Below are positions 6,824-28,150 of a stretch of 32,000 nt of DNA, in pieces. This DNA is from Nostoc sp. PCC 7120 = FACHB-418. Lineage in GTDB: Bacteria; Cyanobacteriota; Cyanobacteriia; Cyanobacteriales; Nostocaceae. A program made the translations under genes and the position numbers. How positions within the stretch are numbered: position 1 is the stretch's first letter; each line of letters opens with the position of its first letter. Location: contig NC_003272.1 in the NCBI RefSeq assembly GCF_000009705.1, positions 3,180,001 through 3,212,000 of the forward strand, written 5' to 3'. The notes below the pieces were generated by a model, which was not told the DNA's origin, searched no databases, and saw nothing but the letters and a program-made list of their open reading frames with translations.

Positions 6824-6837
6824 ATAGGTTTTTTAAA

Positions 6838-6877
6838 CGCAGAGGGGCGCAGAGGTAAGCGCAAAGGTGCGCGGAGA
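6838..6877. repeat. Intergenic GC-rich repeat CGCAGAGG-GG-CGCAGAGG-TAAG-CGCAAAGG-TG-CGCGGAGA.
   Basis: Read directly. It occupies most of the 67-nt spacer between the Gly-module NRPS stop (6891) and the PKS start (6823). Confidence 0.9.
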
Positions 6878-6890
6878 GTTTTTTTGAGGG

Positions 6891-9800
6891 TTAGGTTTTT
6901 AGTCTTGTTTGTCTTTGTTGGAGGAGTCTTTGTTTTCCGGTTTGTTGTTGGGAGATTCTGTTTTCTATTTCTTTATCTGATGTGGGGGTGTTTTGGGTTA
7001 GGTATTTTGCTAGGGAGTTGATGGTGGGATAACGGAATAGGTCTACTAGGGGTATGTTTTGATTGAGTTTTAGGGTGAGTTGTCCTTGCATTCTTACTAT
7101 TAATAATGAATGTCCTCCTAAGTCGAAGAAGTTATCATGAATGCTGATTTTTTCTCTACCTAATAATTGTTGCCAAATATCAGACAGGGTTTGTTCGATT
7201 TGGGTTTGCGGTGGTATGAAATTATTAGTGGTTGTTAAAGGTAAATTGTTGGATTTTGGTAATGCTTTGCGGTCTATTTTACCGTTGGGTGTGAGGGGGA
7301 ATTTTTCTAATAATATGAATGCCGATGGCATCATATATATAGGTAGTTTTTCACCTAAAAATGTGCGTAGTTCTGTGGGGATAATTTCAGGGTGGGAGAC
7401 TATATAGGCTACTAAACGCTGTTCTCCTGGTTCATCTTCTCGCAGGGTGACTACTGCTTGTTCTACTGCGGGATGTTGTGCTAGTACCGCTTCTATTTCT
7501 CCTAGTTCGATGCGAAATCCGCGAATTTTGATTTGATAATCTAGTCTCCCTAAGTATTCGAGTTTACCATCTCTTAGGTAGCGGACGCGATCGCCTGTTT
7601 TGTATAAGGGAGTAGGGAGTAGGGAGTAGGGAGTAGGGTAATTTCTCTGCCCAGTCCCCAGTCCCTTAAATCTCTCTGCTGTTAAGTCTGGGCGTTTCCA
7701 ATATCCTCTGGCGACTCCTGCACCACCAATATATAATTCTCCTGGTACGCCGATGGGGACGGGTTGTAACTGTTCGTCGAGGATGTAAAATTGTGTGTTG
7801 GCGATGGGATGACCGATGGTTACGGGTTCATCTATACTTAGTTTCTGGGCTGCTGACCAAATTGTGGTTTCTGTTGGGCCGTATAGATTCCAGACTTCTT
7901 GACTGCAAGATAATAACTGTTGGGCTAGGGTATTCTCTAGTGCTTCGCCACCACAGAGGATTTTTAAGTCCTGTTTCCCTTCCCAACCACTGGCTAGAAG
8001 TAACCGCCAAGTTGCGGGGGTGGCTTGCATGATGGTAATTTGATGGTGTTCTATGCAGTTGGCGAGTTGGCGAGGGTCAACTAAGGCTGTTTGGGGGGGT
8101 AATACGACTTGTGCGCCTGCAATTAAGGGGAGAAATAATTCTAAGGCGGCGATGTCAAAGGCGATGGTGGTGACTGCTAGGAGTTTGTCGTTAGGGGTGA
8201 TTGATAAACGTTGTTTCAGGTCTGTTAAGATGTTAACGAGCGATCGCCCTTCAATCATCACCCCTTTTGGTTGCCCTGTTGACCCAGATGTATAAATTAA
8301 ATAAGTTAGTTGTTCTGGTGTTACTTTAATTTGTGGGTCAAATATTGGCTGCTGGCTAATATCTTCCTCTAATTCATCGAGGTTAATTGTTGCTATTTTG
8401 TCAGTAATAACACTAGTTAAAGATGTTTGTGTAAGCAACAATTTTAACTCTGCATCTGCCATCATGAAACGCAGACGTTCTGGGGGGAAGGTGGGGTCTA
8501 GTGGTACGTAGGCTGCACCAGCTTTGAGGATACCCAGTAGGGCTATGATTAATAATGGCGATGAACGCTCTAAATAAACCCCAATTCTGGCTTCTGGTTT
8601 GATTCCTAGTTGTAGTAGATAATGGGCGATTTGGTTGGATTTGGCGTTTAATTCGGCATAAGTTAGGGTTTTATCTGCAAATACAACTGCTGTCGCGTCC
8701 GGTGTTTGTTGTGCTTGCTGGCTGATGATTTCATGAACACATTGCTGAGGAATTTCCTGTGTTGTGGCGTTCCAGTCAATGAGTATTTGCTGTTGTTGGG
8801 TGGGACTGAGAAATGGGAGTGTGGCTAAATTACAATCTCCCTGTGTCATTCCTAACAACAGGGTTTCTAACTGTTCTAAGATTTGGGTGATGGTGGTATG
8901 GTGAAAGCGATCGCTATCATATAAAATTCTCAAAGCAAGCTGAGAATCCACCACTGCATACAGCGTCAGAGGATAATTCGTCTGTTCCGTAGCTTGAATA
9001 TTGCGAATTTCCAAAGATGCTAAAGACTGTTTCAGAGCAGGTTCAATGGGATAATTTTCAAATACCACCAAGGTTTCAAATAGTGGTATGGATGGTGAAA
9101 CTTGACTCCAACGATGAATATCTACTAAAGAACTATATTCATATTGCCGTATTTCTACTTGCTGATTTTGTAGCTTTTGCAACCATTGATATAGTGTCTC
9201 TTCAGGAGAAACTAACACCCGGAATGGTAAGGTATTGATAAATAATCCCACCATTGCATCAGCACCATTCAGCGCACTGGGACGACCTGCACTAACGGTA
9301 GCAAATAAAACATTTTTTTCCCCACTATAGCGACTTAACAACAACGCCCAAGCACCTTGGACAAAGGTATTGATGGTTAATTGTTGTTGTTTGGCTAGGG
9401 TTTGCAGTTTGCTAGTTAATTCGACTGAAAGCTGAATTTTTTCCTCGTGATAATGACTATGTAAATTATCGGGACGAACATCTAGGTTTTGACCAACATT
9501 TAACTGCGTTGGCGACACAAACCCCTGTAATTGCTGTTTCCAAAAAGTCTCAGCTTCCGCCAAGTTTTGTTGCTGTAACCACCCAATATAATCTCGATAG
9601 CGACGTGGGTTGAGTAAAACAGGTGTTTGTTGTTGAATATATGCTTGATAAATAACAATAAATTCTTTTAAAAGTACCTGAACAGACCAACCATCTAATA
9701 ATAAATGGTGATAACTCCAAACAAACTGATAAACTTCAGATTTTAACTGAATGAGTGTCATTTGCATCAGAGGTGCTTGGGATAAATTAAATCCCTGTTC

Positions 9801-10151
9801 GCGCTGTTTTTGTAGCAGCAGAACTTTTAAAGCTTCCTGTTGTTGCTGAACTGAAACATCACTCCAATCAAGATGATTAATCTGACATTTTACTTGCTTC
9901 CCAACTACTTGTAGCGGCTTTTCTAAATTATCCCAAACAAAAGCTGTGCGTAAAACAGGATGACGATTGATTAAATCTTGCCAAGCAGCCTCAAAAGCCG
10001 CAATATTTAAATTACCATGTAACTCATAACTTACCTGTACCACATAAGCACCAGAGTTAGGCGCATACAGACTATGAAATAACATACCCTGCTGCAAAGA
10101 TGAGAGGGGATAAATATCCTCAATCATTTTTTGATTTAGAGTTGTATTCAT
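6891..10151 (-). CDS. NRPS module C(DCL-type)-A-T, predicted Gly-activating.
   Basis: 1086-aa ORF. Motifs: IYPLSSLQQGMLFHSL, SYHHLLLDGWS, LKAGAAYVPLDP, LTYLIYTSGSTGQPKGV, FDIAALELF, NLYGPTETTIW, GELYIGGAGVARGY, YKTGDRVRY, IKIRGFRIELGEIE, PLTPNGKIDRKAL, FFDLGGHSLLIV. Hand-extracted code DILQLGLIW(K) equals the published Gly code. The start ATG overlaps the upstream stop as ATGA at 10148-10151. Confidence 0.95.
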   Translation of the reverse strand: MNTTLNQKMIEDIYPLSSLQQGMLFHSLYAPNSGAYVVQVSYELHGNLNIAAFEAAWQDLINRHPVLRTAFVWDNLEKPLQVVGKQVKCQINHLDWSDVSVQQQQEALKVLLLQKQREQGFNLSQAPLMQMTLIQLKSEVYQFVWSYHHLLLDGWSVQVLLKEFIVIYQAYIQQQTPVLLNPRRYRDYIGWLQQQNLAEAETFWKQQLQGFVSPTQLNVGQNLDVRPDNLHSHYHEEKIQLSVELTSKLQTLAKQQQLTINTFVQGAWALLLSRYSGEKNVLFATVSAGRPSALNGADAMVGLFINTLPFRVLVSPEETLYQWLQKLQNQQVEIRQYEYSSLVDIHRWSQVSPSIPLFETLVVFENYPIEPALKQSLASLEIRNIQATEQTNYPLTLYAVVDSQLALRILYDSDRFHHTTITQILEQLETLLLGMTQGDCNLATLPFLSPTQQQQILIDWNATTQEIPQQCVHEIISQQAQQTPDATAVVFADKTLTYAELNAKSNQIAHYLLQLGIKPEARIGVYLERSSPLLIIALLGILKAGAAYVPLDPTFPPERLRFMMADAELKLLLTQTSLTSVITDKIATINLDELEEDISQQPIFDPQIKVTPEQLTYLIYTSGSTGQPKGVMIEGRSLVNILTDLKQRLSITPNDKLLAVTTIAFDIAALELFLPLIAGAQVVLPPQTALVDPRQLANCIEHHQITIMQATPATWRLLLASGWEGKQDLKILCGGEALENTLAQQLLSCSQEVWNLYGPTETTIWSAAQKLSIDEPVTIGHPIANTQFYILDEQLQPVPIGVPGELYIGGAGVARGYWKRPDLTAERFKGLGTGQRNYPTPYSLLPTPLYKTGDRVRYLRDGKLEYLGRLDYQIKIRGFRIELGEIEAVLAQHPAVEQAVVTLREDEPGEQRLVAYIVSHPEIIPTELRTFLGEKLPIYMMPSAFILLEKFPLTPNGKIDRKALPKSNNLPLTTTNNFIPPQTQIEQTLSDIWQQLLGREKISIHDNFFDLGGHSLLIVRMQGQLTLKLNQNIPLVDLFRYPTINSLAKYLTQNTPTSDKEIENRISQQQTGKQRLLQQRQTRLKT
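7608..7665. repeat. Composite heptamer arrays: GGGAGTA x4 (+GGGTA) at 7608-7640 and CCCAGT-CCCCAGT-CCC (STRR1-like) at 7650-7665. Both are in frame in the Gly A domain just upstream of core A7.
   Basis: Read directly. They encode GLGTGQRNYPTPYSLLPTP before LYKTGD. HIP1 is at 7587-7594. Confidence 0.9.
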
Positions 10152-13100
10152 TGCAAACCCTCCGGTGCAAAACTAATCATCCCCATCACCAAATCTAAAG
10201 TTTCTTGATTTAAATTTGCTAACTCAAAATCAGAAGGTGTGTAACCTCCCACATTAGGTAAACGACAGTGATTGATAATTGCTTGTAATCCTTGCTGAAA
10301 ATTATTTGCTAATTGTGAAATAGTTTCTTGTTGATACTGCTGCTGACTATATATCCAATCAAACTGTAATTTACCTTCGCGGACAAACCCAACAATTTCT
10401 ATAGCATAGCGTCGAGTTTGTTGTTTATCTTGGGTTGTAATTCCAGGTAAGGGTAGCCATTTCAATTTTCCATGTTCCAAACCTAAATCTAATTGTCCTA
10501 AATAATTAAAGCTGATTTCCGCTTGGGGTAAATCCCGCAACCTTTGACTCGCTTCACTATCATCAAGGTAGCGTAATATTCCATAACCAAATCCTTGATT
10601 GGGTACTGCTCGCAATTGTTCTTTAATACCCTTCAGCAATTCCCCCCAATCATCACTTTCCTTTGATAACAAACAGGGATAAATTGTTGTAAACCATCCC
10701 ACGGTCCGAGATATATCTATATCTTCCCCTGGAAAATTACGACCATAACCTTCTAAATCAAGCAACACCAAAGGATTATCTATCCAGGTTGAGATAGTAG
10801 CAGTTAAAGCCGTTAATAACACATCATTAATTTGTGTATTGTAGACCGGAGAAACTTCTGTAAGTAAAGCTTGAGTATCTTCCACAGAAAGTTTTATAGT
10901 CACAGTCTCAACATCAACCACCTGATTACCACCATCAGGATAATCAATTGGTAATCGTTTTACTTGTTGGTATTTATTGGATAACCAATATTCTAATTCA
11001 TCTTGTAGACATTCAGACCGAGCATAATCATATAACTTTTCCGCCCAAGTTAAAAACGAAGTAGTCTTAGCAGGTAAACTAATTGTCTGTTTCGCCAAAG
11101 CTTGTTGATAAGCCGTTTGAAAATCCGCCAACAAAATCCGCCAAGAAACCCCATCAACAACCAAATGATGAATAACAATTAATAACCTAGAAACCTCACC
11201 CAAATCAAAATGCACCACCCTTAATAAAGGAGCATAACCAATATTTAAACCAGCCTGTACTTCACCAGCAACCTCTTGAATAACTCTATCCTGCTCACTC
11301 CCAGACAAACCAGACAAATCACAAAAAACCAGAGGAACATCCCCACCCAACTCAACAACCTCTCCTATCTCTCTCTCTGCGCCTCTGCGCCTCTGCGTGA
11401 TAAAATTCTTCTCTCCAAATTGACACCGCAACATATCATGATGCAGCAATAACTTATTAATAACTGCAACCAAAACTTCCTGTTGTAACTTCTCCCCAGA
11501 CTCCAAAAACACCACCTGATTAAAATGATGCTGATTCACCAACTCCTGCTCAAAAAACCAACATTGAATCGGAGTCAACTGCACAGCACCAGTAACCATA
11601 CCCTGCGGTAGCAAAGAAGATTTATCAACAGTAAAAACTCCTGCAAGTTCGGCAATAGTTTGATATTGAAAAAGCTGCTTAGGCGTTAATTGTAATCCTA
11701 CTTGATTAGCCTTAGATATCAACTGAATCGCCAGAATTGAATCACCACCAAGCGCAAAGAAATTATCATAAATACTCACTTGGGACAAATTCAAAACTGA
11801 CGACCAAATTTCTAATAACTTAGCTTCTATATCAGAACGCGCTACAGTTCCATCTGGAAAACTTGTAATTTCTGGTGCTGGTAATTTCTGTCTATCTACC
11901 TTACCGTTAACTGTCAGAGGTAGAGTTTCTAAAGCAACAAAAAAGTGAGGAATTAAATAATCAGGAAGACGCTGCTGTAAAAATTCTCTGAGATTATCTG
12001 GTGTATTATCTAAAGCGATAAAGTAGGCTATGAGTTGTTTTTCACGAGCAATAACCACACATTCTTTTACTGCTGGATGCTGATTTAATACCGCTTCAAT
12101 CTCACCCAACTCAATGCGGAATCCCCGAATTTTTACTTGATTGTCTAATCTCCCTAAGTATTCAATATTACCATCTGCAAGGTAACGAGCGCGATCGCCT
12201 GTTTTATAGAGAGTGCTGAGTGTGGTAGTTCCCAGTCCCCAGTCCCCAGTCCCCAGTCCCCAATTAATAAATTTTTCGGCGGTTAAAGTTGGTTGATTTA
12301 AGTAACCCCGCGCTAGTCCGTCACCAGCAATATATAACTCACCGGGAACGCCTACAGGTAAGGGATTGAGGTGGTTATCGAGAATATAAACTTGAGTATT
12401 ATTGATAGGGCGACCGATGGGAACAGTGTTACTCTCACAGATATCGGTCACACTATAACAACAGGTAAAGGTAGTATTTTCAGTAGGGCCGTAACCATTA
12501 ATTACACGACATTCAGGATAGGTTTGCAGTAATTTATTAATATGAACCGCAGATAAAACATCACCACCAGCGATTAATTGTTTGACTGATTTCAAACTTT
12601 CAAGATGTTCATCTACCATCAGGTGAAATAAGCCTGCTGTTAACCACAGAGTAGTAATTTGATGTTGTGTAATAGCCTGTCCAATTTCTGCTAATGTGGG
12701 TTGTTGATTAGATAAAATTACTAAGCGACTACCATTTAATAATGCTCCCCAAATTTCAAATGTCGAAGCATCAAAAGATATTGGCGCGGCTTGGAGTATG
12801 CTTTCATCAGCACTTAAATTTATATAATTGCAATCTTTGACGAGTCGCACTACACCACGATGGGGTATACATACACCCTTGGGAACTCCTGTAGAACCAG
12901 AGGTGTACATGACGTAGGCGAGATTTTCCGGTGTGGTGTGGTTGACGGGGTTGGTTGTGGGGTGCTGTGTTAGGTTTGCTGTGTCTGTATCAAAACAGAA
13001 GATAGGTAAATCGGGTAATTGGGGGATGTGCTGCTGTTGGGTGAGTATTACCTGTATTTGAGCATCTTCAATTAGAAATTCTAGACGTTCTTGGGGGTAA

Positions 13101-16100
13101 GTTGGGTCTAAGGGAACATAGAAACCACCAGCTTTGAGGATTGCTAAAATACCAATGATAAAATCTAGGGAACGGTGAACGCAAATTCCTACAGCTATTT
13201 CTGGCTGAACTCCTAAAGATTTGAGATGATATGCAAGTTGATTAGCTTTGGTGTTTAGTTCTGAGTAAGTAAGTTTTTGATGTTGACAAATCACTGCAAT
13301 TTCATCACCAAATTTTGCAACTTGCTGCTCAAATAATTCTTGTATGCAATGAATGATGAGATTTGTTGGCGAAGTACCAAAATTGATGATTTGCTGAAGT
13401 TCTCCCCCACTCATTAAAGGTAAATCAGAAATTTTCTGACTAGGTTCAGAAGTCATTCCCAACAAAATATTCTGTAAATGTTCTGTAAAACGGTGAATCG
13501 TTGTTTCTGTAAATAAATCACAGTTATATTCCCATTTACCTTGTAAACCTGCATCTGTTTCCGCAATCATCAACGTAATGTCAAATTTTGCCGTACCGCC
13601 ATCAATTTCTAGGGGACTCCAACGTAAACCGGGAATTTCTATTGGCTGGGTAGGTGCATTTTCTACTGCCAGCATAACTTGAAATAAGGGTGAATGACTC
13701 AAAGAGCGAACTAATTTTAACTCTTCTACTACCTGCTCAAATGGTACATCTTGATGGCTGTACGCAGATAACACCATTTCTCGCACCCGTGGTAATAATT
13801 CCGCGACTGTGGGATTATCTTCTAGGGAAATTAACAGCGCGAAGGTATTCACAAAAAAGCCAATTAATCCCTCTGTTCCAGGATAATGACGATTGGCTAC
13901 AGGACTACCAATGACGATTTTTTCTTGTTGACTATAGCGATGCAACAGAATACTAAACGCCGAAAACATTACCATAAATAATGTAGTGTGCGTTTCCTGA
14001 CCGAGTTGTTTAATTTTCTCTGTTAATTCTTCAGATATTGTAAAACTATGTCGCTGACCTCGAAATGTTTGAATAGCTGGACGCGGATAATCTGTAGGTA
14101 AGTCTAATAGTTCTGGTGCTGACTCTAATTGTTGTCGCCAATATTCAACTTGATAGTTAAATTTATCACTTTGCGACCTTTGCCAAACAGCGAAATCAGC
14201 ATACTGAATTTTTAATGGTTGTAGAGGAGAAGATTGTCCTTGAGAAAAGGCTTGATATATAGTCGCCATTTCCTGCGCGAATACATTAATTGACCAACCA
14301 TCGGTAATAATGTGGTGCATGGTCAATAAGAGGATGTATTCCTGAGTATTTAAATATAAAAATTTGGCTCGTAAAAGTGGACTAATTTCTAAATTAAAAG
14401 GTTGTTGACTTTCCTCTTGCGCCAGTTCTTGGACAAGTTTTTGCTGTTGAGATGGGGGAAGAAAACTTAAATCTACAACCGGGATATGGGAATTGATTTC
14501 TGTTGCAATGACAGCTATCCCTTGACCATCGACATTGACAAAACTGGTACGCAAAATTTCATGACGGTGGATAATTTCTTGCAAACTTTGTGTCAGAACA
14601 TCAACATTGACATCACCAGTAAGTTGTAAAGCAGCAGCTACGTTGTATGATGGGTTTTCTGGTTCGATTTGCGCCAACATCCACAAACGTTGTTGAGCGA
14701 AGGAAAGCAATATTTTATCTGTACTTTCCCTCTCAGGAATTGAGCTATACAGAGATAATTTTGAAGAATTAATTAATGTTGCTAATTCAGCAATGGTAGG
14801 ATTTTCAAATATTTGTCGTAAAGAAATATCTACCCCAAACACCTGCTGAATTTGGGAAACCAGACGAATTACTAATAAAGAATGACCACCCAAAGCAAAG
14901 AAATTATCTGTAATTCCCACTGAATTTAAATTCAATATATTTTGCCAAATATTTAGCAATAATTCCTCTGTGGGTGTGCGTGGTGCAATTGTGTGTGATG
15001 ATGTTTTAAATTGTGGTTTTGGTAATGCACGACGGTCAACTTTACCATTAGGAGTGAGCGGTAGTGCATCTAAGGTGATAAATTGAGAAGGAATCATGTA
15101 ATCTGGCAGATTTTTTGCCAAATATTGCCGCAAATCTGTTATTTCTGGATTTTCTGAGACAATATAAGCCACTAACCGTTTATCACCAGTGGTATCTTCT
15201 GTCACAACTACAATAGCCGCTTGTACCTCTGAATGTTGGCTGAGTACGGTTTCTATCTCACCTAATTCAATCCGAAATCCACGAATTTTTACTTGGTTGT
15301 CTAATCTGCCTAAGTATTCTATTGTACCATCTCTTAGGTAGCGGGCGCGATCGCCTGTTTTGTATAGGGCATGGGGTATGGGGCATGGGGCATGGGGCAT
15401 TGGTGTAAGATAGCCTATGCTGCCCAAATCCGAATAACTAATAAATCTTTCTGCTGTTAATTCAGGGCGATTTAAGTAACCTCTGGCGACTCCCGCACCG
15501 CCAATGTAAAGTTCTCCTGGTACGCCGATGGGAACGGGTTGTAAATGCTGGTCAAGGATGTAAATGTGGGTGTTGGCGATAGGACGACCAATAGGTACGG
15601 TTTTTAAGTTAGTATGTTTTCGGCACTGCCAGAAAGTAACATCAATAGCTGCTTCTGTAGGGCCATAGAGGTTATATAATTCGCAGTCAAAACGCTCAAG
15701 AAATTGGTTTTGCAAATCTAAAGATAAGGCTTCACCACTACAAATTACTCTTTTAAGAGAGGTACATTTTTCTACATTACCGCTTTCTAAAAAGATTCGC
15801 AGCATGGAGGGTACAAAATGCAAAATAGTTATTTGCTCTTGAATAATTAGATTAATCAGATAAGCACTATCTCGATGTCCACCTGGTTTAGCAATTACTA
15901 AACGTGCGCCTGTTAATAAAGTCCAGAAGAATTCCCAGACAGATACATCAAAGCTAAAAGGTGTTTTTTGTAAAATGCTATCTGTAGAATTTATTTGATA
16001 AGTTTCTTGCATCCACAATAAGCGATTGCATATCCCTTGGTGGGTGTTCATTACACCTTTGGGTTTACCAGTAGAACCAGATGTGTAGATAACGTAAGCA

Positions 16101-17914
16101 AGATTATCTAGTTTTACTCCACTATCAGGATTAGTATTTGGTTGTCTGGAAATTTTATCCCATTCTGTATCTATACAAATCTTATGAGTTTGATTTTGAG
16201 GAATTTGAGCGAGTAATTGTTCCTGAGTTAAAAATACTTTAACCTGAGAATCTTCTAGCATATAAGCTATGCGTTCTTGGGGATATTCTGGATCAATGGG
16301 TACATAAGCACCCCCAGCTTTGATGATTCCCAACAAACAGACAGTCATTTCTAAAGAACGTTCTAAACAAATACCAACTAATATTTCCGGTTTTACCCCC
16401 AACTGCTGCAAATAATGAGCCAGTTGATTAGCTTTATTATTCAGTTCTCTATAAGTCAAACATTCCTCACCAAAAACCAACGCAATTGCATCAGGTGTTC
16501 TTTCCACCTGCGCCTCAAATAGCTGATGAATGCACTGATTTGGATATGCTTGTGTAGTTTGATTCCAATCTTTTAATATTAATTGCTTCTCCTGGGGCGT
16601 TAACATTGATAGTTGTGAAAGCCTTTGCTCAGGCTCATTCACCATTGACATCAGCAAAGTTTCTAAATGTCCTAAAAGACGCGAAATCGTTGCTGCATCA
16701 AAATAAGAGACATCATAACTAACCTTAAATAATAACTCCTCCCCAGGAATTACTGTTAATGTCAGAGGATAATTTGTTTTTTCAAATCCTTGGGTATCCT
16801 CAATTTGGAGAGTTTGATCAAAAGTTTTGATGACTGATTCTATCGACACTGGATAATTTTCAAATACCAGCAAACTCTCAAATAAAGATGTTCCACGGGG
16901 AACGGAACTCCAGCTTTGAATATCTACCAAGGAACTATAACTATATTGTTCTCTTTCTACCTGTTGAGCTTGCAATTGTTGCAGCCAAGGTATTATTTGC
17001 ATCTCTCCATTTACATCGACGCGCACAGGTAAAGTATTAATAAATAGACCAACTATGCTTTCTACTTGTGGTAATTCTGGAGGACGACCGGAAACAGTAG
17101 TACCAAACAATACATTATTCTCACCACTATAGCGGCTTAATAATAATGCCCAAGCCCCTTGTACTAAGATATTAAGGGTAAGACGATGCTGACGGACAAA
17201 GTTTTGTAGTTGTTCAGTTTGTTGACTGTTGACTTTTGACTGTTGACTGAAAATTGAGGATTGGTTATTTATTTTATTCCCCAAAACTGTTGGTGCTGTA
17301 AAATCTTGAAGCTGCTTACGCCAAAAACTTTCTGCTTGCTCTGGGTTTTGTTGCTGTAACCAGAGAATATAATTACCGTAGGGGATGGGTGATGGTAGAG
17401 TTACATCCTCACTTTGACAAAATGCTTTATATAGTGTGAAAACTTCTGTTAATAAAATCCCGTTACACCAACCATCCATGAGTAAATGATGGTGACTCCA
17501 GATAAATTGGTATTTATTGGCTTCTAAACGAATTACAGCACAACGCATCAGGGGAGGTTGCTGTAAATTGAAACCAGAATTACAGTCACATTCTAAAAAC
17601 TCAGTTAATTTAGCTTTTTGTACAGTAGCCTCTACACCACACCAATCTAATTCTTGCCAAGGTAATTCTACATAGTCATATACTACTTGCAATGGTTTTT
17701 CTAACTCTGAATAGTGAAAAGCAGTCCGCAAAACTGAATGACGCTCAACTACGCGCTGCCAAGCTTGACGAAAAGCTGGTAAATTCAAATTACCGCGAAT
17801 CAGACAACTACGCTGTTCAAAATATACGCCCGAATTGGGAGCGTACAAGGTATGAAATAACATTCCCGCCTGCATGGGAGAAAGTTCGTAGATGTCGATA
17901 ATACTGCTTTCCAC
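10148..17914 (-). CDS. Bimodular NRPS C(DCL)-A-T-C(LCL)-A-T-E, predicted Ser then Val (epimerised).
   Basis: 2588-aa ORF with a GTG start 5 nt after the upstream stop. Motifs: IYELSPMQAGMLFHTL, SHHHLLMDGWC, LAYVIYTSGSTGKPKGV, FFALGGHSLLVI, LSFAQQRLWMLAQIEP, MHHIITDGWS, LAYVMYTSGSTGVPKGV, FFALGGDSILAIQ (the GGDSI form typical of a carrier preceding an E domain), IHHLVVDGVSWRIL, GGYTPSDFELANL. Codes: DVWHISLID(K) ~ Ser and DAFWIGGTF(K) = Val. Confidence 0.95.
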   Translation of the reverse strand: MESSIIDIYELSPMQAGMLFHTLYAPNSGVYFEQRSCLIRGNLNLPAFRQAWQRVVERHSVLRTAFHYSELEKPLQVVYDYVELPWQELDWCGVEATVQKAKLTEFLECDCNSGFNLQQPPLMRCAVIRLEANKYQFIWSHHHLLMDGWCNGILLTEVFTLYKAFCQSEDVTLPSPIPYGNYILWLQQQNPEQAESFWRKQLQDFTAPTVLGNKINNQSSIFSQQSKVNSQQTEQLQNFVRQHRLTLNILVQGAWALLLSRYSGENNVLFGTTVSGRPPELPQVESIVGLFINTLPVRVDVNGEMQIIPWLQQLQAQQVEREQYSYSSLVDIQSWSSVPRGTSLFESLLVFENYPVSIESVIKTFDQTLQIEDTQGFEKTNYPLTLTVIPGEELLFKVSYDVSYFDAATISRLLGHLETLLMSMVNEPEQRLSQLSMLTPQEKQLILKDWNQTTQAYPNQCIHQLFEAQVERTPDAIALVFGEECLTYRELNNKANQLAHYLQQLGVKPEILVGICLERSLEMTVCLLGIIKAGGAYVPIDPEYPQERIAYMLEDSQVKVFLTQEQLLAQIPQNQTHKICIDTEWDKISRQPNTNPDSGVKLDNLAYVIYTSGSTGKPKGVMNTHQGICNRLLWMQETYQINSTDSILQKTPFSFDVSVWEFFWTLLTGARLVIAKPGGHRDSAYLINLIIQEQITILHFVPSMLRIFLESGNVEKCTSLKRVICSGEALSLDLQNQFLERFDCELYNLYGPTEAAIDVTFWQCRKHTNLKTVPIGRPIANTHIYILDQHLQPVPIGVPGELYIGGAGVARGYLNRPELTAERFISYSDLGSIGYLTPMPHAPCPIPHALYKTGDRARYLRDGTIEYLGRLDNQVKIRGFRIELGEIETVLSQHSEVQAAIVVVTEDTTGDKRLVAYIVSENPEITDLRQYLAKNLPDYMIPSQFITLDALPLTPNGKVDRRALPKPQFKTSSHTIAPRTPTEELLLNIWQNILNLNSVGITDNFFALGGHSLLVIRLVSQIQQVFGVDISLRQIFENPTIAELATLINSSKLSLYSSIPERESTDKILLSFAQQRLWMLAQIEPENPSYNVAAALQLTGDVNVDVLTQSLQEIIHRHEILRTSFVNVDGQGIAVIATEINSHIPVVDLSFLPPSQQQKLVQELAQEESQQPFNLEISPLLRAKFLYLNTQEYILLLTMHHIITDGWSINVFAQEMATIYQAFSQGQSSPLQPLKIQYADFAVWQRSQSDKFNYQVEYWRQQLESAPELLDLPTDYPRPAIQTFRGQRHSFTISEELTEKIKQLGQETHTTLFMVMFSAFSILLHRYSQQEKIVIGSPVANRHYPGTEGLIGFFVNTFALLISLEDNPTVAELLPRVREMVLSAYSHQDVPFEQVVEELKLVRSLSHSPLFQVMLAVENAPTQPIEIPGLRWSPLEIDGGTAKFDITLMIAETDAGLQGKWEYNCDLFTETTIHRFTEHLQNILLGMTSEPSQKISDLPLMSGGELQQIINFGTSPTNLIIHCIQELFEQQVAKFGDEIAVICQHQKLTYSELNTKANQLAYHLKSLGVQPEIAVGICVHRSLDFIIGILAILKAGGFYVPLDPTYPQERLEFLIEDAQIQVILTQQQHIPQLPDLPIFCFDTDTANLTQHPTTNPVNHTTPENLAYVMYTSGSTGVPKGVCIPHRGVVRLVKDCNYINLSADESILQAAPISFDASTFEIWGALLNGSRLVILSNQQPTLAEIGQAITQHQITTLWLTAGLFHLMVDEHLESLKSVKQLIAGGDVLSAVHINKLLQTYPECRVINGYGPTENTTFTCCYSVTDICESNTVPIGRPINNTQVYILDNHLNPLPVGVPGELYIAGDGLARGYLNQPTLTAEKFINWGLGTGDWGLGTTTLSTLYKTGDRARYLADGNIEYLGRLDNQVKIRGFRIELGEIEAVLNQHPAVKECVVIAREKQLIAYFIALDNTPDNLREFLQQRLPDYLIPHFFVALETLPLTVNGKVDRQKLPAPEITSFPDGTVARSDIEAKLLEIWSSVLNLSQVSIYDNFFALGGDSILAIQLISKANQVGLQLTPKQLFQYQTIAELAGVFTVDKSSLLPQGMVTGAVQLTPIQCWFFEQELVNQHHFNQVVFLESGEKLQQEVLVAVINKLLLHHDMLRCQFGEKNFITQRRRGAEREIGEVVELGGDVPLVFCDLSGLSGSEQDRVIQEVAGEVQAGLNIGYAPLLRVVHFDLGEVSRLLIVIHHLVVDGVSWRILLADFQTAYQQALAKQTISLPAKTTSFLTWAEKLYDYARSECLQDELEYWLSNKYQQVKRLPIDYPDGGNQVVDVETVTIKLSVEDTQALLTEVSPVYNTQINDVLLTALTATISTWIDNPLVLLDLEGYGRNFPGEDIDISRTVGWFTTIYPCLLSKESDDWGELLKGIKEQLRAVPNQGFGYGILRYLDDSEASQRLRDLPQAEISFNYLGQLDLGLEHGKLKWLPLPGITTQDKQQTRRYAIEIVGFVREGKLQFDWIYSQQQYQQETISQLANNFQQGLQAIINHCRLPNVGGYTPSDFELANLNQETLDLVMGMISFAPEGLQ
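11374..11397 (-). repeat. Octamer array TCTCTGCG-CCTCTGCG-CCTCTGCG (complement CGCAGAGG), 24 nt, in frame inside the E domain of the bimodular NRPS.
   Basis: Read directly. It encodes ..TQRRRGAERE.. Confidence 0.85.
12231..12262. repeat. Heptamer tandem array CCCCAGT (STRR1) ~4.5 units, in frame in the Val A domain upstream of core A7.
   Basis: Read directly. It encodes WGLGTGDWGLGT. HIP1 is at 12191-12198. Confidence 0.9.
15367..15401. repeat. Heptamer tandem array GGGCATG/GGGTATG x5, in frame in the Ser A domain upstream of core A7.
   Basis: Read directly. It encodes PMPHAPCPIPHA before LYKTGD. HIP1 is at 15347-15354. Confidence 0.9.
17221..17248. repeat. Heptamer tandem array GTTGACT x4 (one unit TTTGACT). 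The complement AGTCAAC is a cyclic permutation of STRR3 CAACAGT. It is in frame in the first C domain of the bimodular NRPS.
   Basis: Read directly. It encodes SQQSKVNSQQ. Confidence 0.9.
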
Positions 17915-17919
17915 TCTCG

Positions 17920-20900
17920 CTACCTTTTCTTTGGCTGAAGCTTGTTTAAAAATTTGTCGAGTTGCTGCTGATTTAAACGCGCACCTGCAAAATCTGATGG
18001 TGTGTAACCGCCACTATTTGGTGCTTGGCAATGTTGAATTATTGCTTGTAATGTTTTAATGAATTGCTGGGCTAAATTTTCAATGGTCGTTGTGTCATGT
18101 AAATTGCGACTGTATCGCCATTGAATTTGTAACTGAGATTGGGCTATCCAAGCATTGATATTTAATACATATCGACGCTGATTTAGAGGATGTGATGATA
18201 ATCCTGTAGATTCTTTTGCTAGTCCCAGAATCCATCCTTGGGAGGTGAATAAATCTAGTTGTCCCAAGTAATTAAAACTAATAGCAGATTGGGGTAGTGA
18301 TTGTAAAGTTTGAGATATCTGTTGATTCGGATTTAAATATCGTAGCAGCCCATAACTAATACCTTTTTGCGGAATTTCTCTAAGTCTTTCCTTTACATAT
18401 TTTAAATTCTCTTCCAGGTTATTTATATTTTTTAATTCTAAAAATACTGGAAAAATGGTAGTAAACCAACCTACTGTCCGAGTGATGTTGATATTAGCAA
18501 ATAAATCTTCTCGTCCATGCGTTTCTAAGTCAATCAGTACAGAATTTTGTTGTGTCCATTGACTATAAGTTAGTGCTAAAGCGGTTAATAATACATCATT
18601 GATTTGTGTCTGGTAGGCTTTGGGTACTGCTTCTATTAAGGCGCGAGTTTGACTAATATCTAGCTTAACCTGAATTTCAGCCTCAGATGCAATGTTATTA
18701 TCACCTTTACCAATCTTATCTAAAGGTAATTGGGGTAATTGTTTAGGGAGAATTTCTAACCAAGTTTTGAATTGTGCGACAACTTGATCAGATTCGGCAT
18801 AATTAACTAAATTTTGCGCCCATTCTCTGAAAGATGTGGTTTTTAGTGATAGTTTTATAGATGTTTGCTTGGCTTTTAGCTGTTGATAGGCTGTGACTAA
18901 ATCTTCTAGCAAAATGCGCCAAGAAATTCCATCAACGACTAAATGATGAATGATAAATAGTAGGCGATGATTTTGATTATCTCCTAGTTTAAACAAGGCT
19001 ACTTTAAATAGTATCCCCTGAGCTAAATCTAAACTAGCTTGCAGTTGAGATGCGACTGATTCAATTTGCTGGGTTTGCTGGTTTGCTGAGAATCCATTTA
19101 AATCAACAACTGTGAATATCTCCCCATTCTCGAAGGTAGGAATTATATCTTGCTCCCACGCACCATCTAAGGAAGAATTGATAAAACAAGAACGCAATAC
19201 ATCATGATGTAATACTAGTTCCTCAATTGCCTGTTTTAAGTAATCTACCTCTAAATCTGCCGCTACTTCCAAAAGCACAGCTTGGTTAAAGTAATCCCAT
19301 TTGTGCAAATTTTGCTCAAATAGCCAATGTTGAATCGGCGTTAAGGGGACTATTCCCGTCGCTATCCCTTGTTCTACTTGAGTTGTGGGCGCGATTTCTA
19401 TCACAGTTGCTAGTTCTGCGATGGTTTGATGCTGGAATAATTGCTTGGGTGTTAACTTTATTCCTGCATTATTCGCCTTTGCTACCATTTGAATACTCAG
19501 GATGGAATCTCCCCCACGCTCAAAGAAATTATCATGAATACCAACGCTAACACCGAGAATTTCTGTCCAGATTTCTACTAGGGTGGCTTCTATGGCGTTA
19601 CGTGGTGCGACTTGTTCTGATTCTGGTTTGGCTGCGGGTGCGGGAAGTTGTTGTTTGTCAACCTTCCCATTGGTTGTTAATGGTAATTGTTCCAGCCAGA
19701 CAAAGGCTGAAGGTAGCATATAAGCTGGTAATTTGGTTGCTAAATATTGCCGAAAATCTACCGTTTGCTGATTCCCGACAAGATAAGCGACTAATTGAGA
19801 CGATTGGGGGTGAACTTTCTGTAGGATGACTACAGCTTCTTGTACTGAGGGATGAGCTTTTAAAATTGCTTCAATTTCCCCCAATTCTACCCGAAATCCG
19901 CGAATTTTTACTTGATCGTCTAATCTGCCTAAGTATTCTATTGTACCGTCACTGAGGTAGCGGGCGCGATCGCCTGGTTTGTAGAGAGTGTTGACTGTTG
20001 ACTGTTGACTGTTGACTGTTGACTGTTGACTAATAAATCTTTCTGCGGTTAATTCGGGGCGATTTAAGTAACCTCTGGCGACTCCCGCACCACCTATGTA
20101 GAGTTCTCCGGGTACGCCGATGGGAACGGGTTGTAAATAGCGGTCTAAAATATAAAGTCGTGTATTGGCAATAGGACGACCAATAGGTACATTACCCTTG
20201 CTTGATTTTCCTTGTGAAGCATCATAAATACAGCACCCCACAACGGTTTCTGTGGGGCCATATTCATTAATTAACTTTGTTTGGGGAAAATAACTGCGCC
20301 AAAATTCTAAATGTTGTTCCGTTAGTGCTTCACCACCAATGATGAATGCTTGGGGGTATCCTGCTGGCACTTTTTGCGGTAGAAGTTGAGACAGTATGCT
20401 TAAATGAGCAGGGGTAAGTTTAACTAAACTAAAATTCCTTGCAGAACTGAGGGCGTTTTTTAGTGCTTCGATTTCCTCGGCTTCTGGTAGCAGTATTACC
20501 GCTTTCCCTACGAGTAGGGGTGTATATAAACTGGTAATGGTAGCATCAAAGCTGATGGCAGATTGTACAGGTACACCTACACCTAAATCTACTGGATAGG
20601 TTTGAATCGCCCATTGTAAATAATTAGCTAGTCCTCGATGGGTAAGCATTACGCCTTTTGGTTTACCCGTCGAACCAGATGTGTAAATTATGTAAGCGAG
20701 GTTTTCACCTGTAACTATGTTGGGTAAGTTTTCTGTGGGATTTTGAGCTATGCTTTGCCAATCTTCATCTAAACAGATTACAGTTCCTTGATAGTCTGGT
20801 AATCCCGTCACCGATGCAGCCATTGTTAATATAATTCTCGGTTGAGCATCCCCCAGCATATAAGCTAAACGTTCGGGAGGGAGTTTGTTATCTAGGGGGA

Positions 20901-22671
20901 TGTACGCGCCTCCAGCTTTGAGAACTGCTAGTAAGGCTATAATTAATTCTGGCGATCGCTCTAAATAAATTCCTACTAAAGACTCACAACCTACGCCTAA
21001 TTTTTGTAAATGATGGGCGAGTTGATTAACTTTGCTGTTCAGTTCTTGATAGGTAAGGGTTTGCTCTTGATAACAAACAGCGATACTATCGGGTGTGCGC
21101 TGAACTTGTTCCTCAAATAGTTGATGTAGCCATTTTTGCGGATAATCTACCTGGGTTTGATTCCATTCCACCAGAATTTGATGCTGTTCTTGGGGGGTGA
21201 GAATGGGAATTTCAGAAATTTTCCGGCTGGGGTTTTCGACAATGGCTGCTAGGATAACCCGCAAGTGCTGAATCATCCTGGTGATAGTCTGTTGCTGAAA
21301 TAAATCTGTACAATATTCCATCACCACTAGCAAACCTTGGGAACGTTCCACTATATGACAAGTTAAGTCAAATTTGGTTGCGCCAGTTTCTACCCAAGTT
21401 TGCTGAATTTCTAAGTCTGGTATTTGTAAATCTAACTGGGAATCATTCTGCAACTGATAAGCTTCGTTTTGTACCTGAAACATCACTTGCACTAAGGGAT
21501 TATGGCTCAAATCCCGTTCTATTTGCAGTGCTTCGACAACTTTGGCGAAGGGAATTTCTTGATATTCAAAGGCTTCGGCGGCGGTGGTGCGTATGCGTTC
21601 GAGAAGGGTGGTAAAGGTGGGATTTTCAGATAAATCTGTGCGTAATACTAACGTGTTGACGAAAAAACCAATTAAACTTTGTATTTGTTGGCGATCGCGG
21701 TTTGCACTCGGTACTCCTAAAACAATCTCGTCTTGCTGACAATAGCGATGTAGCAACACTTTAAAAGCTGCTAACAACAACATAAACAGCGTTACACCTT
21801 GCTGTTTACTCAATTGTTTCAGGGATTCTGAGAGAGTTTTGGGCAATAAATATGACTCGGTTTTCCCGTTAAACTTTTGTAGTGCGGTGCGTGGGTAATC
21901 TGTTGGTAGTTCTAGGGTAGGCAATTTGGCTAATTTTTGTTGCCAGTATGCCAATTGTGCTGCCATTTCTTCTCTTTGCAGACATTCTCTCTGCCATAAA
22001 GCAAAATCTGCATACTGATTTGATAATGCAGGTAGAGACGGTTGCTCATCGTTGATGAATGCACGATAGCAAGTTGCTAATTCCCGCAACAGGATGCCCC
22101 GTGACCATCCATCAGCGATGATATGGTGTAGTGTTAGCAGTAGGGTGGCTTGATTTGGTGCGAGGCGAATTAATTTCACCCGCATTAGGGGGGCTTGAGT
22201 TAAATCGAAGGGTTGACTGGCTTCTAGTTTGGCTAAATCTTGGGCTGTTTGTGCTTGTTGTTGCGGTGGTAAGCCTTGTAGGTCAATAATTGGTAGTTGT
22301 AAGTCAATATTTGCCGCAATTTTTTGATAAGGTTTACCTTCTTGGGATAAAAAGGCAGTCCTTAAACTTTCGTGGCGTTGGATAATTGTTTGTAAACTGG
22401 CTAATAAAGTCGAAATTTCTAATTTTCCTGCTAATTGCCAAGAAATTGCAATATTATAGGATGAATCGCTGGGGTTGATTTGATGCAGAAACCACAGTCT
22501 TTCTTGGGCTAAGGAAAGGGGTAATTCGGTGTTATTGTTGCGGGGTGGAATAGTTTGGCTAGAATTGGCTTTTTGGCGGAGTAGTTTTTCTAGTAAGGCT
22601 CGTTTTTCAGGCGTTAGTGAGGCTAAACGGCTTTGTAACTGCTGGGGGATGTTGGGCTGGGAGGATGTCAT
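17920..22671 (-). CDS. NRPS module C(LCL-type)-A-T-E, predicted Asn (epimerised). It is the first megasynthase gene of the co-directional run.
   Basis: 1583-aa ORF. N-terminal LASLTPEKRALLEKLLRQK region, then LSLAQERLWFLHQINP, LHHIIADGWS, LKAGGAYIPLD, LAYIIYTSGSTGKPKGV, FDATITSLY, KLTPAHL, INEYGPTETVVGC, YKPGDRARY, FFERGGDSILSIQ, IHHLVVDGISWRIL, GGYTPSDFAGARL. Code DATKIGEVG(K) ~ Asn. Confidence 0.95.
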   Translation of the reverse strand: MTSSQPNIPQQLQSRLASLTPEKRALLEKLLRQKANSSQTIPPRNNNTELPLSLAQERLWFLHQINPSDSSYNIAISWQLAGKLEISTLLASLQTIIQRHESLRTAFLSQEGKPYQKIAANIDLQLPIIDLQGLPPQQQAQTAQDLAKLEASQPFDLTQAPLMRVKLIRLAPNQATLLLTLHHIIADGWSRGILLRELATCYRAFINDEQPSLPALSNQYADFALWQRECLQREEMAAQLAYWQQKLAKLPTLELPTDYPRTALQKFNGKTESYLLPKTLSESLKQLSKQQGVTLFMLLLAAFKVLLHRYCQQDEIVLGVPSANRDRQQIQSLIGFFVNTLVLRTDLSENPTFTTLLERIRTTAAEAFEYQEIPFAKVVEALQIERDLSHNPLVQVMFQVQNEAYQLQNDSQLDLQIPDLEIQQTWVETGATKFDLTCHIVERSQGLLVVMEYCTDLFQQQTITRMIQHLRVILAAIVENPSRKISEIPILTPQEQHQILVEWNQTQVDYPQKWLHQLFEEQVQRTPDSIAVCYQEQTLTYQELNSKVNQLAHHLQKLGVGCESLVGIYLERSPELIIALLAVLKAGGAYIPLDNKLPPERLAYMLGDAQPRIILTMAASVTGLPDYQGTVICLDEDWQSIAQNPTENLPNIVTGENLAYIIYTSGSTGKPKGVMLTHRGLANYLQWAIQTYPVDLGVGVPVQSAISFDATITSLYTPLLVGKAVILLPEAEEIEALKNALSSARNFSLVKLTPAHLSILSQLLPQKVPAGYPQAFIIGGEALTEQHLEFWRSYFPQTKLINEYGPTETVVGCCIYDASQGKSSKGNVPIGRPIANTRLYILDRYLQPVPIGVPGELYIGGAGVARGYLNRPELTAERFISQQSTVNSQQSTVNTLYKPGDRARYLSDGTIEYLGRLDDQVKIRGFRVELGEIEAILKAHPSVQEAVVILQKVHPQSSQLVAYLVGNQQTVDFRQYLATKLPAYMLPSAFVWLEQLPLTTNGKVDKQQLPAPAAKPESEQVAPRNAIEATLVEIWTEILGVSVGIHDNFFERGGDSILSIQMVAKANNAGIKLTPKQLFQHQTIAELATVIEIAPTTQVEQGIATGIVPLTPIQHWLFEQNLHKWDYFNQAVLLEVAADLEVDYLKQAIEELVLHHDVLRSCFINSSLDGAWEQDIIPTFENGEIFTVVDLNGFSANQQTQQIESVASQLQASLDLAQGILFKVALFKLGDNQNHRLLFIIHHLVVDGISWRILLEDLVTAYQQLKAKQTSIKLSLKTTSFREWAQNLVNYAESDQVVAQFKTWLEILPKQLPQLPLDKIGKGDNNIASEAEIQVKLDISQTRALIEAVPKAYQTQINDVLLTALALTYSQWTQQNSVLIDLETHGREDLFANINITRTVGWFTTIFPVFLELKNINNLEENLKYVKERLREIPQKGISYGLLRYLNPNQQISQTLQSLPQSAISFNYLGQLDLFTSQGWILGLAKESTGLSSHPLNQRRYVLNINAWIAQSQLQIQWRYSRNLHDTTTIENLAQQFIKTLQAIIQHCQAPNSGGYTPSDFAGARLNQQQLDKFLNKLQPKKR
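19990..20031. repeat. Heptamer tandem array GTTGACT x6 (STRR3-like), 42 nt, in frame in the Asn A domain upstream of core A7.
   Basis: Read directly. It encodes QQSTVNSQQSTVN before TLYKPGD. HIP1 is at 19966-19973. Confidence 0.95.
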
Positions 22672-28060: not shown

Positions 28061-28150
28061 TCCGCGTACCTCTGCGCTTACCTCCGCGCTACGGCAGTCG
28101 CTTCAAGTCGGCAAAGCCGCCCAACGCGCTGCCTCCCCTCTGCGTTTAAA
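28060..28150. repeat. Composite GC-rich repeat element: CTCCGCG-TA-CCTCTGCG-CTTA-CCTCCGCG, a ~43-nt GC-rich core (GGCAGTCGCTTCAAGTCGGCAAAGCCGCCCAACGCGCTGCC), then CCTCCCCTCTGCG-TTTAAAC.
   Basis: Read directly. The core can fold: GGCAG(T)CGC pairs with GCGCTGCC, with an inner GGC-AAA-GCC mini hairpin. It lies between the exoprotein stop (28157) and the monooxygenase start (28003). Confidence 0.8.

Follow-up and report, generated by a model that had tools for sequence, protein, structure and literature searches.

Heterocystous cyanobacteria reportedly carry families of short tandemly repeated repetitive (STRR) heptanucleotides, an account that goes back to Mazel et al. in 1990. Three units of this class are named, STRR1 (CCCCAGT), STRR2 (TTGGTCA) and STRR3 (CAACAGT), and, to our knowledge, their origin and spread have stood unexplained since 1990. 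Here we analyse a stretch of 32,000 nucleotides (nt) of the chromosome of Nostoc sp. PCC 7120 (NC_003272.1, positions 3,180,001 to 3,212,000; hereafter the window, numbered from its first letter), in which a cluster of nonribosomal peptide synthetase (NRPS) and polyketide synthase (PKS) genes carries arrays of such heptanucleotides within the coding sequence of its adenylation (A) domains, in the loop between the core motifs A6 and A7. The novelty of this locus is that repeat families already known from cyanobacteria have settled, in frame, in one codon-precise loop of a catalytic domain, where they replace one another repeatedly.

Relationship to previously described repeats and insertions

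The closest described system is the set of GGGGA(C/T)T repeats catalogued by Rehm et al. 2015 (PMC4692102), who recorded 89 such sites in the 6.4-Mb chromosome of PCC 7120, 68% of them intergenic, noted that the intragenic fraction is unusually high in this strain, and placed seven of the 89 within all2642-all2648. In that study the repeats are discussed as regulatory or G-quadruplex elements, and a preference for four units is attributed to G-quadruplex formation. Three entries of its S2 Table C, assigned to all2646 and all2648, coincide with arrays of the window (#48, 5044-5080; #49, 12227-12262; #50, 15367-15400), the chromosome coordinates being those of the window plus 3,180,000. The study does not map the arrays onto protein domains, and the term "peptide synthetase" is absent from its main text and supplements. 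Our search of the full-text literature, Elhai 2008 and Mazel 1990 aside, turned up no account of heptamer arrays at the A6-A7 loop and none of their turnover. An initial sequence-only reading of the window knew of no earlier description of the pattern, but three of the arrays had already been catalogued as intragenic by Rehm et al. Another unit of the window belongs to the TTCAAAA/AAATTCA family, which is distributed genome-wide and occurs in 21 upstream regions (bioRxiv 10.1101/2022.06.06.494920). The units (CCCCAGT/GGGGACT and CAACAGT), the tandem layout and the organism are all the same as in the Rehm and STRR repeats; in contrast to those mainly intergenic repeats, the arrays described here are translated, occupy a single fixed loop within a catalytic domain and are exchanged for others from orthologue to orthologue. 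Units that are not G-rich behave in the same way, and G-quadruplex formation is therefore not the common denominator.

The small dispersed repeats of Nostoc, which are said to be elements of 21-27 nt with a conserved hairpin (Elhai et al. in 2008), offer a second parallel, in that very small elements nest in heptamer arrays and in that a hairpin cassette of the orthologous loops, CCCTCCCCTT-ggt-AAGGGGAGGG, is itself a dispersed family; the inserts of the window, however, are plain tandem arrays rather than hairpins. The contingency loci of Haemophilus and Neisseria likewise have tandem units that are not a multiple of three inside coding sequence, but the present arrays are internal rather than 5'-proximal, change in frame-keeping steps of three units, and were not seen in out-of-frame alleles. 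Interrupted A domains, which accommodate methyltransferase, ketoreductase or oxidase inserts, show a comparable tolerance of extra sequence within an A domain; those insertions lie at A8-A9 or A2-A3, whereas the site here is A6-A7 and the inserts are 4-50 low-complexity residues with no fold or catalytic role. Finally, replacement of A domains by recombination is known in cyanobacterial NRPSs, for instance in mcyB/mcyC (PMC2174460). Recombination at conserved motif-coding DNA in A domains would be common to both cases, and the A core of module 2 in PCC 7120 itself appears to have been replaced, but the piece exchanged at the loops would be a cassette of tens of nucleotides rather than the specificity core.

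Heptanucleotide arrays in the A6-A7 loops of the window

Tandem arrays were called with Tandem Repeats Finder, domains were assigned with the Pfam models PF00501 and PF13193, and loops were cut out by motif anchors in A6 and A7. The three NRPS genes are designated N1 (all2649), N2 (all2648, with two modules) and N3 (all2647). Their A6-A7 loops contain the following arrays:

19989-20031, minus strand: CAACAGT (STRR3) array of 6.1 copies in the module 1 loop (N1), encoding SQQSTVNSQQSTVN
15367-15400, minus strand: CCCCATG-type (ATGCCCC) array of 4.9 copies in the module 2 loop (N2), encoding TPMPHAPCPIPHA
12227-12262, minus strand: GGGGACT (complement of STRR1) array of 5.1 copies in the module 3 loop (N2), encoding NWGLGTGDWGLG
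7607-7638, minus strand: CCCTACT array of 4.6 copies with a 100% match in the module 4 loop (N3), encoding YPTPYSLLPTP
7650-7665, minus strand: short GGGACTG array of 2.3 copies, the second array in the N3 loop, encoding GLGTG

The period-7 arrays match their consensus at 92-100% in Tandem Repeats Finder, with perfect runs of 23-43 nt. We take the arrays at 12227-12262, 7650-7665 and 5044-5080 (the last in the PKS gene) to be STRR1 or its complement, and those at 19989-20031 and 17220-17249 (the latter in N2, outside the A domains) to be STRR3; the CCCTACT, CCCCATG and AAATTCA units presumably belong to none of the three named STRR classes. Translation of the coding strand places all five loop arrays between TAE(R/K)F and LYK(T/P)GD of AMP-binding domains, that is, in the stretch bounded by GELxIGGxGxARGY (A6) and Y(K/R)TGD (A7), and these bounds hold in alignments with LgrA, PheA and further A domains of solved structure. 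The complete loop peptides are ISQQSTVNSQQSTVNT in N1, ISYSDLGSIGYLTPMPHAPCPIPHA and INWGLGTGDWGLGTTTLST in the first and second modules of N2, and KGLGTGQRNYPTPYSLLPTP in N3. Relative to the solved LgrA A domain, the N1 array amounts to a clean 7-residue insertion, and the loop ends four residues before the Asp of A7. The presence of an in-frame heptanucleotide array between A6 and A7 in all four complete A domains, proposed from the sequence alone, is thereby borne out by repeat calling, translation and Pfam assignments alike, and the array coordinates and unit assignments given there were correct.

The window has six runs of at least 21 nt that repeat perfectly with period 7, as against none in 100 dinucleotide shuffles of it, and the other periods from 5 to 10 show no enrichment over the same shuffles. 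By our own rough estimate the chance of finding four of seven array loci inside the four loops (at most 240 nt) is about 7e-7 under uniform placement over 20.2 kb of NRPS/PKS coding DNA, a null that ignores paralogy and selection. The array sequences are the same in six independent assemblies and metagenomes and are therefore no assembly artefacts.

In a separate observation, the lengths of perfect runs cluster around 32-33 nt (4.6 units), in G-rich and AT-rich arrays alike, across the window and the orthologous clusters L007-L011, L032 and L036. The G-quadruplex argument by which Rehm et al. account for a preference for four units would not extend to those units that are not G-rich.

Turnover of the loop interior among orthologous clusters

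A scan of species-representative genomes together with look-ups of N3 relatives yielded 11 orthologous clusters, from Nostoc parmelioides, Cronbergia, two Trichormus metagenome-assembled genomes, two Nodularia, Nostoc UHCC 0870, Fischerella thermalis, Nostoc edaphicum and two metagenome contigs. A further set, L001-L006, comprises near-identical strains in which all arrays are the same, and these carry no information on turnover. A homology query with an A6-A10 fragment brought up nothing but short fragments, all with canonical loops, and gave no information on the arrays. Across the 11 genomes, 31 of 33 loops contain an insert, and their interiors hold at least eight unrelated inserts, including heptamers, an CTCTGCGC octamer cassette, a hairpin mini-element and composites, or none at all. 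The states observed at the individual modules are:

Module 1: CAACAGT x6; octamer cassette; GGGGACT x4.6 or a degenerate remnant; TCCCCAC x4.6; non-repetitive loop
Module 2: ATGCCCC; octamer; CAACTGT or CAACAGT; GGGGACT remnant
Module 3, repeat states: GGGGACT; AATTCAA with ACTCAGC; CAACAGT; CCCTACT; composite with AGCAGGGG x4
Module 3, plain state: nine-residue IQHPLSS(P/H)L in Cronbergia and Nodularia UHCC 0506
Module 4: at least four unrelated loops among N3 orthologues of more than 90% overall protein identity
Module 5 (just outside the window): CAACAGT x6 of the PCC 7120 type; hairpin element in Nostoc UHCC 0870; GGGGAAT/GGGGACT in Fischerella

A single orthologous module thus assumes three to seven different loop states across genomes while its flanks remain 87-100% identical. 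The peptides are not shared between orthologues, as proteins of more than 90% identity carry different repeats or none, and the sequence-only proposal of a DNA-level insertion or expansion hotspot in a tolerant loop is supported by this turnover. Its description of the arrays as unrelated in sequence was, however, overstated: several units are one nucleotide apart (CCCTACT/CCCCACT and CAACAGT/CAACTGT), and several cassette types have non-repeat tails in common. In N. edaphicum and JGI33 an NPF or HPF tripeptide is followed by an array, N. edaphicum keeping the canonical NPF with the arrays just after it. These NPF/HPF loops, together with the IQHPLSSPL loop of Cronbergia and Nodularia UHCC 0506, are probably surviving ancestral states. 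Distant members of the family reach 15-17 copies, and some of their arrays overwrite part of the conserved ELTAERF segment. The distant orthologue L035, for example, has in-frame A6-A7 arrays of GGGAATT x16.9 (7510-7627) and of CCAATTC x15.3 (2660-2766), the latter overwriting the conserved TAEKFI segment. The longest loops number 73 residues, counted from the end of A6 to A7.

An insertion of another kind was seen in the module 1 A domain of the Trichormus and Nodularia orthologues (L009-L011), where about 45-70 residues (PSFAQDLENPSP...GKGVRGLGF) are inserted in frame at columns 791-867 of the N1 alignment. PCC 7120 lacks this insertion, which probably represents a nested mini-element.

Vertical inheritance of the flanks and sharing of cassettes

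For each loop we compared an upstream flank of 168 nt and a downstream flank of 240 nt. The nearest neighbours of a flank are always the orthologues of the same module, and grouping never follows the type of insert. The upstream flank of module 5 is 99% identical around three different inserts, and the 240-nt downstream flank of module 3 is 100% identical between JGI33 and Fischerella, which have different inserts. The fractions of identical positions are:

Orthologues: upstream 0.87, downstream 0.88
Paralogues within a genome: upstream 0.73, downstream 0.84
Different modules in different genomes: upstream 0.72, downstream 0.83

The flanks are inherited vertically while the loop interior turns over. 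Paralogues are as identical within as between genomes, and there is therefore no large-tract concerted evolution. Gene conversion of large tracts between modules was tested as the cause of the shared cassettes and rejected, given that the flanks cluster by module and that paralogues of one genome are no closer than those of different genomes. The flanks of modules 1 and 2 had been counted by hand as matching at 102 of 110 and 60 of 65 nt, figures that are exact on recount; these modules are close paralogues near the loop (92-94% identity), as they are in other genomes, and sequence comparison identifies this resemblance as ancient paralogy.

Cassettes of one type are found in different modules. 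Modules 1, 2, 3 and 5 share, across different genomes, characteristic non-repeat tails such as GGGAATTACCTCACTCAGCACT after GGGGACT; the neighbouring EKF-L codons vary together with the octamer cassette; and the hairpin cassette of module 4 in one genome matches that of module 5 in another at 62 of 72 positions. Since cassettes recur across modules together with their tails, they have either moved between modules or been repeatedly inserted from a common source, in both cases without detectable flanks. The hairpin family (TACCCCACCC..CCCTCCCCTTgcaAAGGGGAGGG) has about eight copies in the N. edaphicum cluster (L036 positions 4716, 6381, 9892, 12853, 15291, 17034, 18208 and 21992) and one in L001 at about 21083; copies translated outside N. 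edaphicum are in frame and read ..NPPLxKGR...

Reading frame, orientation and copy number

All units are oriented such that none of the frames contains a stop codon, and the reverse complements of CAACAGT, AATTCAA, CCCTACT and ACTCAGC do contain stop codons. Copy-number variants are three units, or 21 nt, apart, namely CAACAGT x6 versus x3 and GGGGACT x4.6 versus x1.6. The GGGAATT x16.9 array matches a 21-nt super-period at 97% as against 81% for period 7, which is the trace that frame-preserving slippage would be expected to leave. No out-of-frame copy-number allele was found among the six near-identical strains and metagenomes or the orthologues. Apparent gene fragmentation and frameshifts in L003 and L006 were considered as slippage events and rejected, being due to runs of N in the assemblies.

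Two observations concern the next NRPS gene of these strains. In L001 it has an in-frame CCCCCTG x4 array at 22439-22469 (HIPLPPAPCPPA), and in L003 (AP018216.1, with an identical N3 protein) a run of N at 22439-22577 falls exactly over this array. We take AP018216.1 to be Trichormus variabilis NIES-23.

The HIP1 palindrome in A7

HIP1, the highly iterated palindrome GCGATCGC, occurs 18 times in the window as against 0.12 expected. Four copies, located by sequence match, code for the G-D-R of A7:

7587-7594: A7 of N3
12191-12198: A7 of module 3
15347-15354: A7 of module 2
19966-19973: A7 of module 1

All four GDR tripeptides (4/4) in the window are spelled GGCGATCGC, and the remaining 13 HIP1 sites within the nine large open reading frames (ORFs) code for AIA, xDR or xRS. 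In the cluster family HIP1 is present in the A7 of every loop checked but one (module 4 of L035), array-less loops included, and the three heptamer arrays that lie outside A domains have their nearest HIP1 about 2 kb away or farther. The four GDR-coding sites pointed out in the sequence-only reading are thus real, but the association that it drew between them and the arrays is not supported; HIP1 is incidental to the arrays and is just this genome's preferred spelling of G-D-R in A7.

Arrays outside the A domains and generality of the pattern

The arrays are not exclusive to A domains: two PKS linkers and one loop of a condensation (C) domain, missed in the sequence-only reading, also carry arrays and turn them over. 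The repeats concerned, and a related octamer, are:

17220-17249, minus strand: in-frame CAGTCAA (STRR3) x4.3 array in the first C domain of N2, encoding SQQSKVNSQQ
5492-5524, minus strand: in-frame AAATTCA x4.7 array in the KS-AT linker of the PKS, encoding KFKIQNSKFKI; unit of the TTCAAAA family
5044-5080, minus strand: in-frame CCCCAGT (STRR1) x5.3 array at the start of the AT domain of the PKS, encoding PSPQSPVPSPQ
11375-11397, minus strand: in-frame CGCAGAGG octamer x2.9 in the C-terminal condensation/epimerization-type domain of N2, encoding RRGAERE

At the C-domain site of N2 the unit is CAGTCAA in PCC 7120, N. parmelioides and Cronbergia, and TGGGGAC in Trichormus and Nodularia (L009 12652-12683, L011 14024-14062); at the two PKS sites the orthologues have other repeats, hairpin elements or nothing. 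Beside this, the table of Rehm et al. lists arrays about 755-793 nt into all2643 and all2642 (PMC4692102), possibly the same C-domain position. The intergenic spacers at 2300-2356 and 6824-6890 (also 28063-28090) are composed of CCTCTGCG/ACCTCCGCG-type repeats, and one octamer family provides the spacers, the in-frame loop cassette of the orthologues (LLKTPLCASAPLREKT) and the RRGAERE stretch of N2.

Among 644 A6-A7 stretches from 150 diverse giant multi-module NRPSs, a set without taxon labels used as a background length distribution only, 99% are 19-30 amino acids long and none shows a 7-residue periodicity. A second set of 107 stretches from the closest relatives, mostly cyanobacterial, is about 70% canonical, with repeat-like extended loops in proteins of Nostoc, Calothrix, Plectonema, Fischerella and Microcoleus. 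In the other NRPS clusters sampled from Nostocales (L012-L016) most loops are canonical, and arrays are absent. Thus, by sequence comparison, the A6-A7 loop is generally variable in length and is repeat-saturated only in this cluster family.

Origin and turnover of the loop cassettes

Taken together, the position of the inserts is fixed, their interior turns over between vertically inherited flanks, orientation is filtered, copy number changes in three-unit steps, and other linkers behave alike. The loop appears to be a tolerated dumping ground for selfish repeats; it is subject to turnover at the level of DNA and is not a conserved protein feature. We therefore favour, with a probability of roughly 0.7, the explanation that in this family of Nostocaceae siderophore clusters A6-A7 is an indel-tolerant loop in which STRR-type heptamers, CTCTGCGC-type octamers and small hairpins nest. 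A repeat cassette would arise in, or be copied into, the loop, and would then grow and shrink by replication slippage, with selection purging variants that break the frame or bear stops, such that stop-free orientations and steps of three units (21 nt) would remain. Occasionally a cassette would be replaced wholesale, most likely by short-patch recombination between modules, for which about 25 nt of near-invariant DNA on each side, coding for ...ELTAERF and YKTGDRARY, could serve as homology arms; such recombination appears to be the most economical route of replacement. The encoded peptides, having no conserved sequence, would be by-products and probably neutral in function.

Several points weigh against this explanation or parts of it. 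No slippage event was observed: the six near-identical strains have the same arrays, and orthologues of 77-95% identity with a unit in common show a stable copy number. The case for short-patch conversion draws on the sharing of cassettes and on a few linked flank nucleotides. The canonical loops of L012-L016 imply that permissiveness alone does not explain the saturation of this cluster family, and the data at the level of the cluster fit insertion everywhere followed by retention in permissive loops as well as they fit mechanistic targeting. By homology to solved A domains the loop would be exposed at the surface; an AlphaFold2 model of N3 built from a 40-sequence alignment shows no confident structure here, its predicted local distance difference test (pLDDT) score being below 50 over residues 798-853, A6 included, and 29-35 over 801-850.

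Mechanistic targeting would take the form of an active, sequence-directed hotspot, at which an uncharacterised mechanism recognises the conserved A6-tail/A7 DNA or the resident repeats and writes or replaces cassettes at this codon-precise site; turnover would in that case be powered by insertion and not just sieved by selection. This we regard as unlikely, even though insert borders are constant within a few nucleotides for at least eight cassette types, sites are re-used by different repeat classes and include composite or nested loops, the all2642-all2648 region holds 7 of the 89 chromosomal GGGGA(C/T)T repeats, and many unit types prefer an array length of about 32 nt. Purifying selection on the essential residues to either side would produce fixed borders just as well, no target-site duplications or element-encoded functions are seen, HIP1 also stands in array-less loops, and other permissive linkers act alike despite having no A6/A7 flanks. 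The broader notion that the A6-A7 loop and a few other megasynthase linkers are a genuine target of an uncharacterised process spreading STRR heptamers appears similarly doubtful.

The explanations that remain are less probable still. A unit of 7 nt shifts the frame at every single-unit change, and the occurrence of at least eight arrays in 20 kb of one operon-like, iron-regulated cluster with a secreted product could suggest a contingency locus, in which a one-unit change truncates the synthetase and toggles costly siderophore production within the filament population. Such a switch is highly improbable, however, as all arrays are in frame and identical in the six near-identical strains, the breaks in L003 and L006 are N runs, orthologues differ by three-unit steps or whole cassettes only, and the arrays lie mid-gene or in the 3' part rather than near the start. 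Selection for a Gly/Pro/Ser/Thr-rich insert that would provide the A domain with a flexible spacer or a docking element has about as little to recommend it. Nearly every loop of the cluster family is lengthened, some to 73 residues, in enzymes that are presumed active since the cluster reportedly takes part in siderophore synthesis, but neither sequence, length nor composition is conserved between orthologues, two genomes retain short loops of the canonical kind, and basic and hydrophobic peptides such as NSKFKIQNSK and LLKTPLCASAPLREKT occur among the inserts. Least credible of all is descent by module duplication from one ancestral array-bearing A domain with no recurrent events, which would agree with the 92-94% identity of modules 1 and 2 around the loop but is contradicted by the orthologues, where each module has three to seven states between flanks of 87-100% identity, and array-less states besides.

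If the loops and linkers were indeed a genuine target, they would for the first time allow STRR cassettes to be followed, one event after another, as they are born, replaced and nested, since their flanks are constrained by the protein and can be aligned to the nucleotide. The locus offers a codon-anchored, alignable record of heptamer turnover, which is very hard to reconstruct in intergenic DNA, and a naturally validated permissive insertion site in NRPS A domains that would be useful for tagging or engineering, provided that the carriers are active. For annotators and phylogeneticists, the loop peptides are by-products of repeats that can break assemblies and inflate apparent divergence. 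The loops are also fast-evolving strain markers within a conserved biosynthetic cluster.

Genes and other features of the locus

The window genes considered here correspond to all2649 to all2646, all of which are on the minus strand according to the ORF list, and their domain orders were assigned with Pfam:

17920-22671, minus strand: N1 (all2649), NRPS; Condensation, AMP-binding, PP-binding, Condensation-type
10148-17914, minus strand: N2 (all2648), two-module NRPS
6891-10151, minus strand: N3 (all2647), NRPS; C-A-T
2357-6823, minus strand: all2646, PKS; KS-AT-KR-ACP

N1 and N3 are exactly BAB74348.1 and BAB74346.1, respectively, and the Pfam content of N1-N3 is confined to standard NRPS families (Condensation, AMP-binding, AMP-binding_C and PP-binding). 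The genes all2649-all2646 are part of the FurA-regulated siderophore NRPS/PKS cluster of PCC 7120, and a FurA box, AATAGAAACTTGCAATAAT, has been reported upstream of all2649 (PMC4005646); we located this box upstream of N1 in the window.

The A core of module 2 in PCC 7120 (15425-16237, N2 residues ~560-830) is only 20-59% identical to its orthologues, as against 90-100% for the rest of N2. On the basis of these identities it looks like a replacement of the specificity core, the 3' breakpoint of which lies a short way upstream of A6 and of the repeat loop.

A separate set of tandem repeats, with a 27-nt period and no relation to the heptamer arrays, occupies 28403-28627 in a 1267-residue ORF (28157-31960); it codes for Gly/Asp-rich nonapeptides (GGAGDDxLxGG...) that resemble RTX-like calcium-binding repeats.

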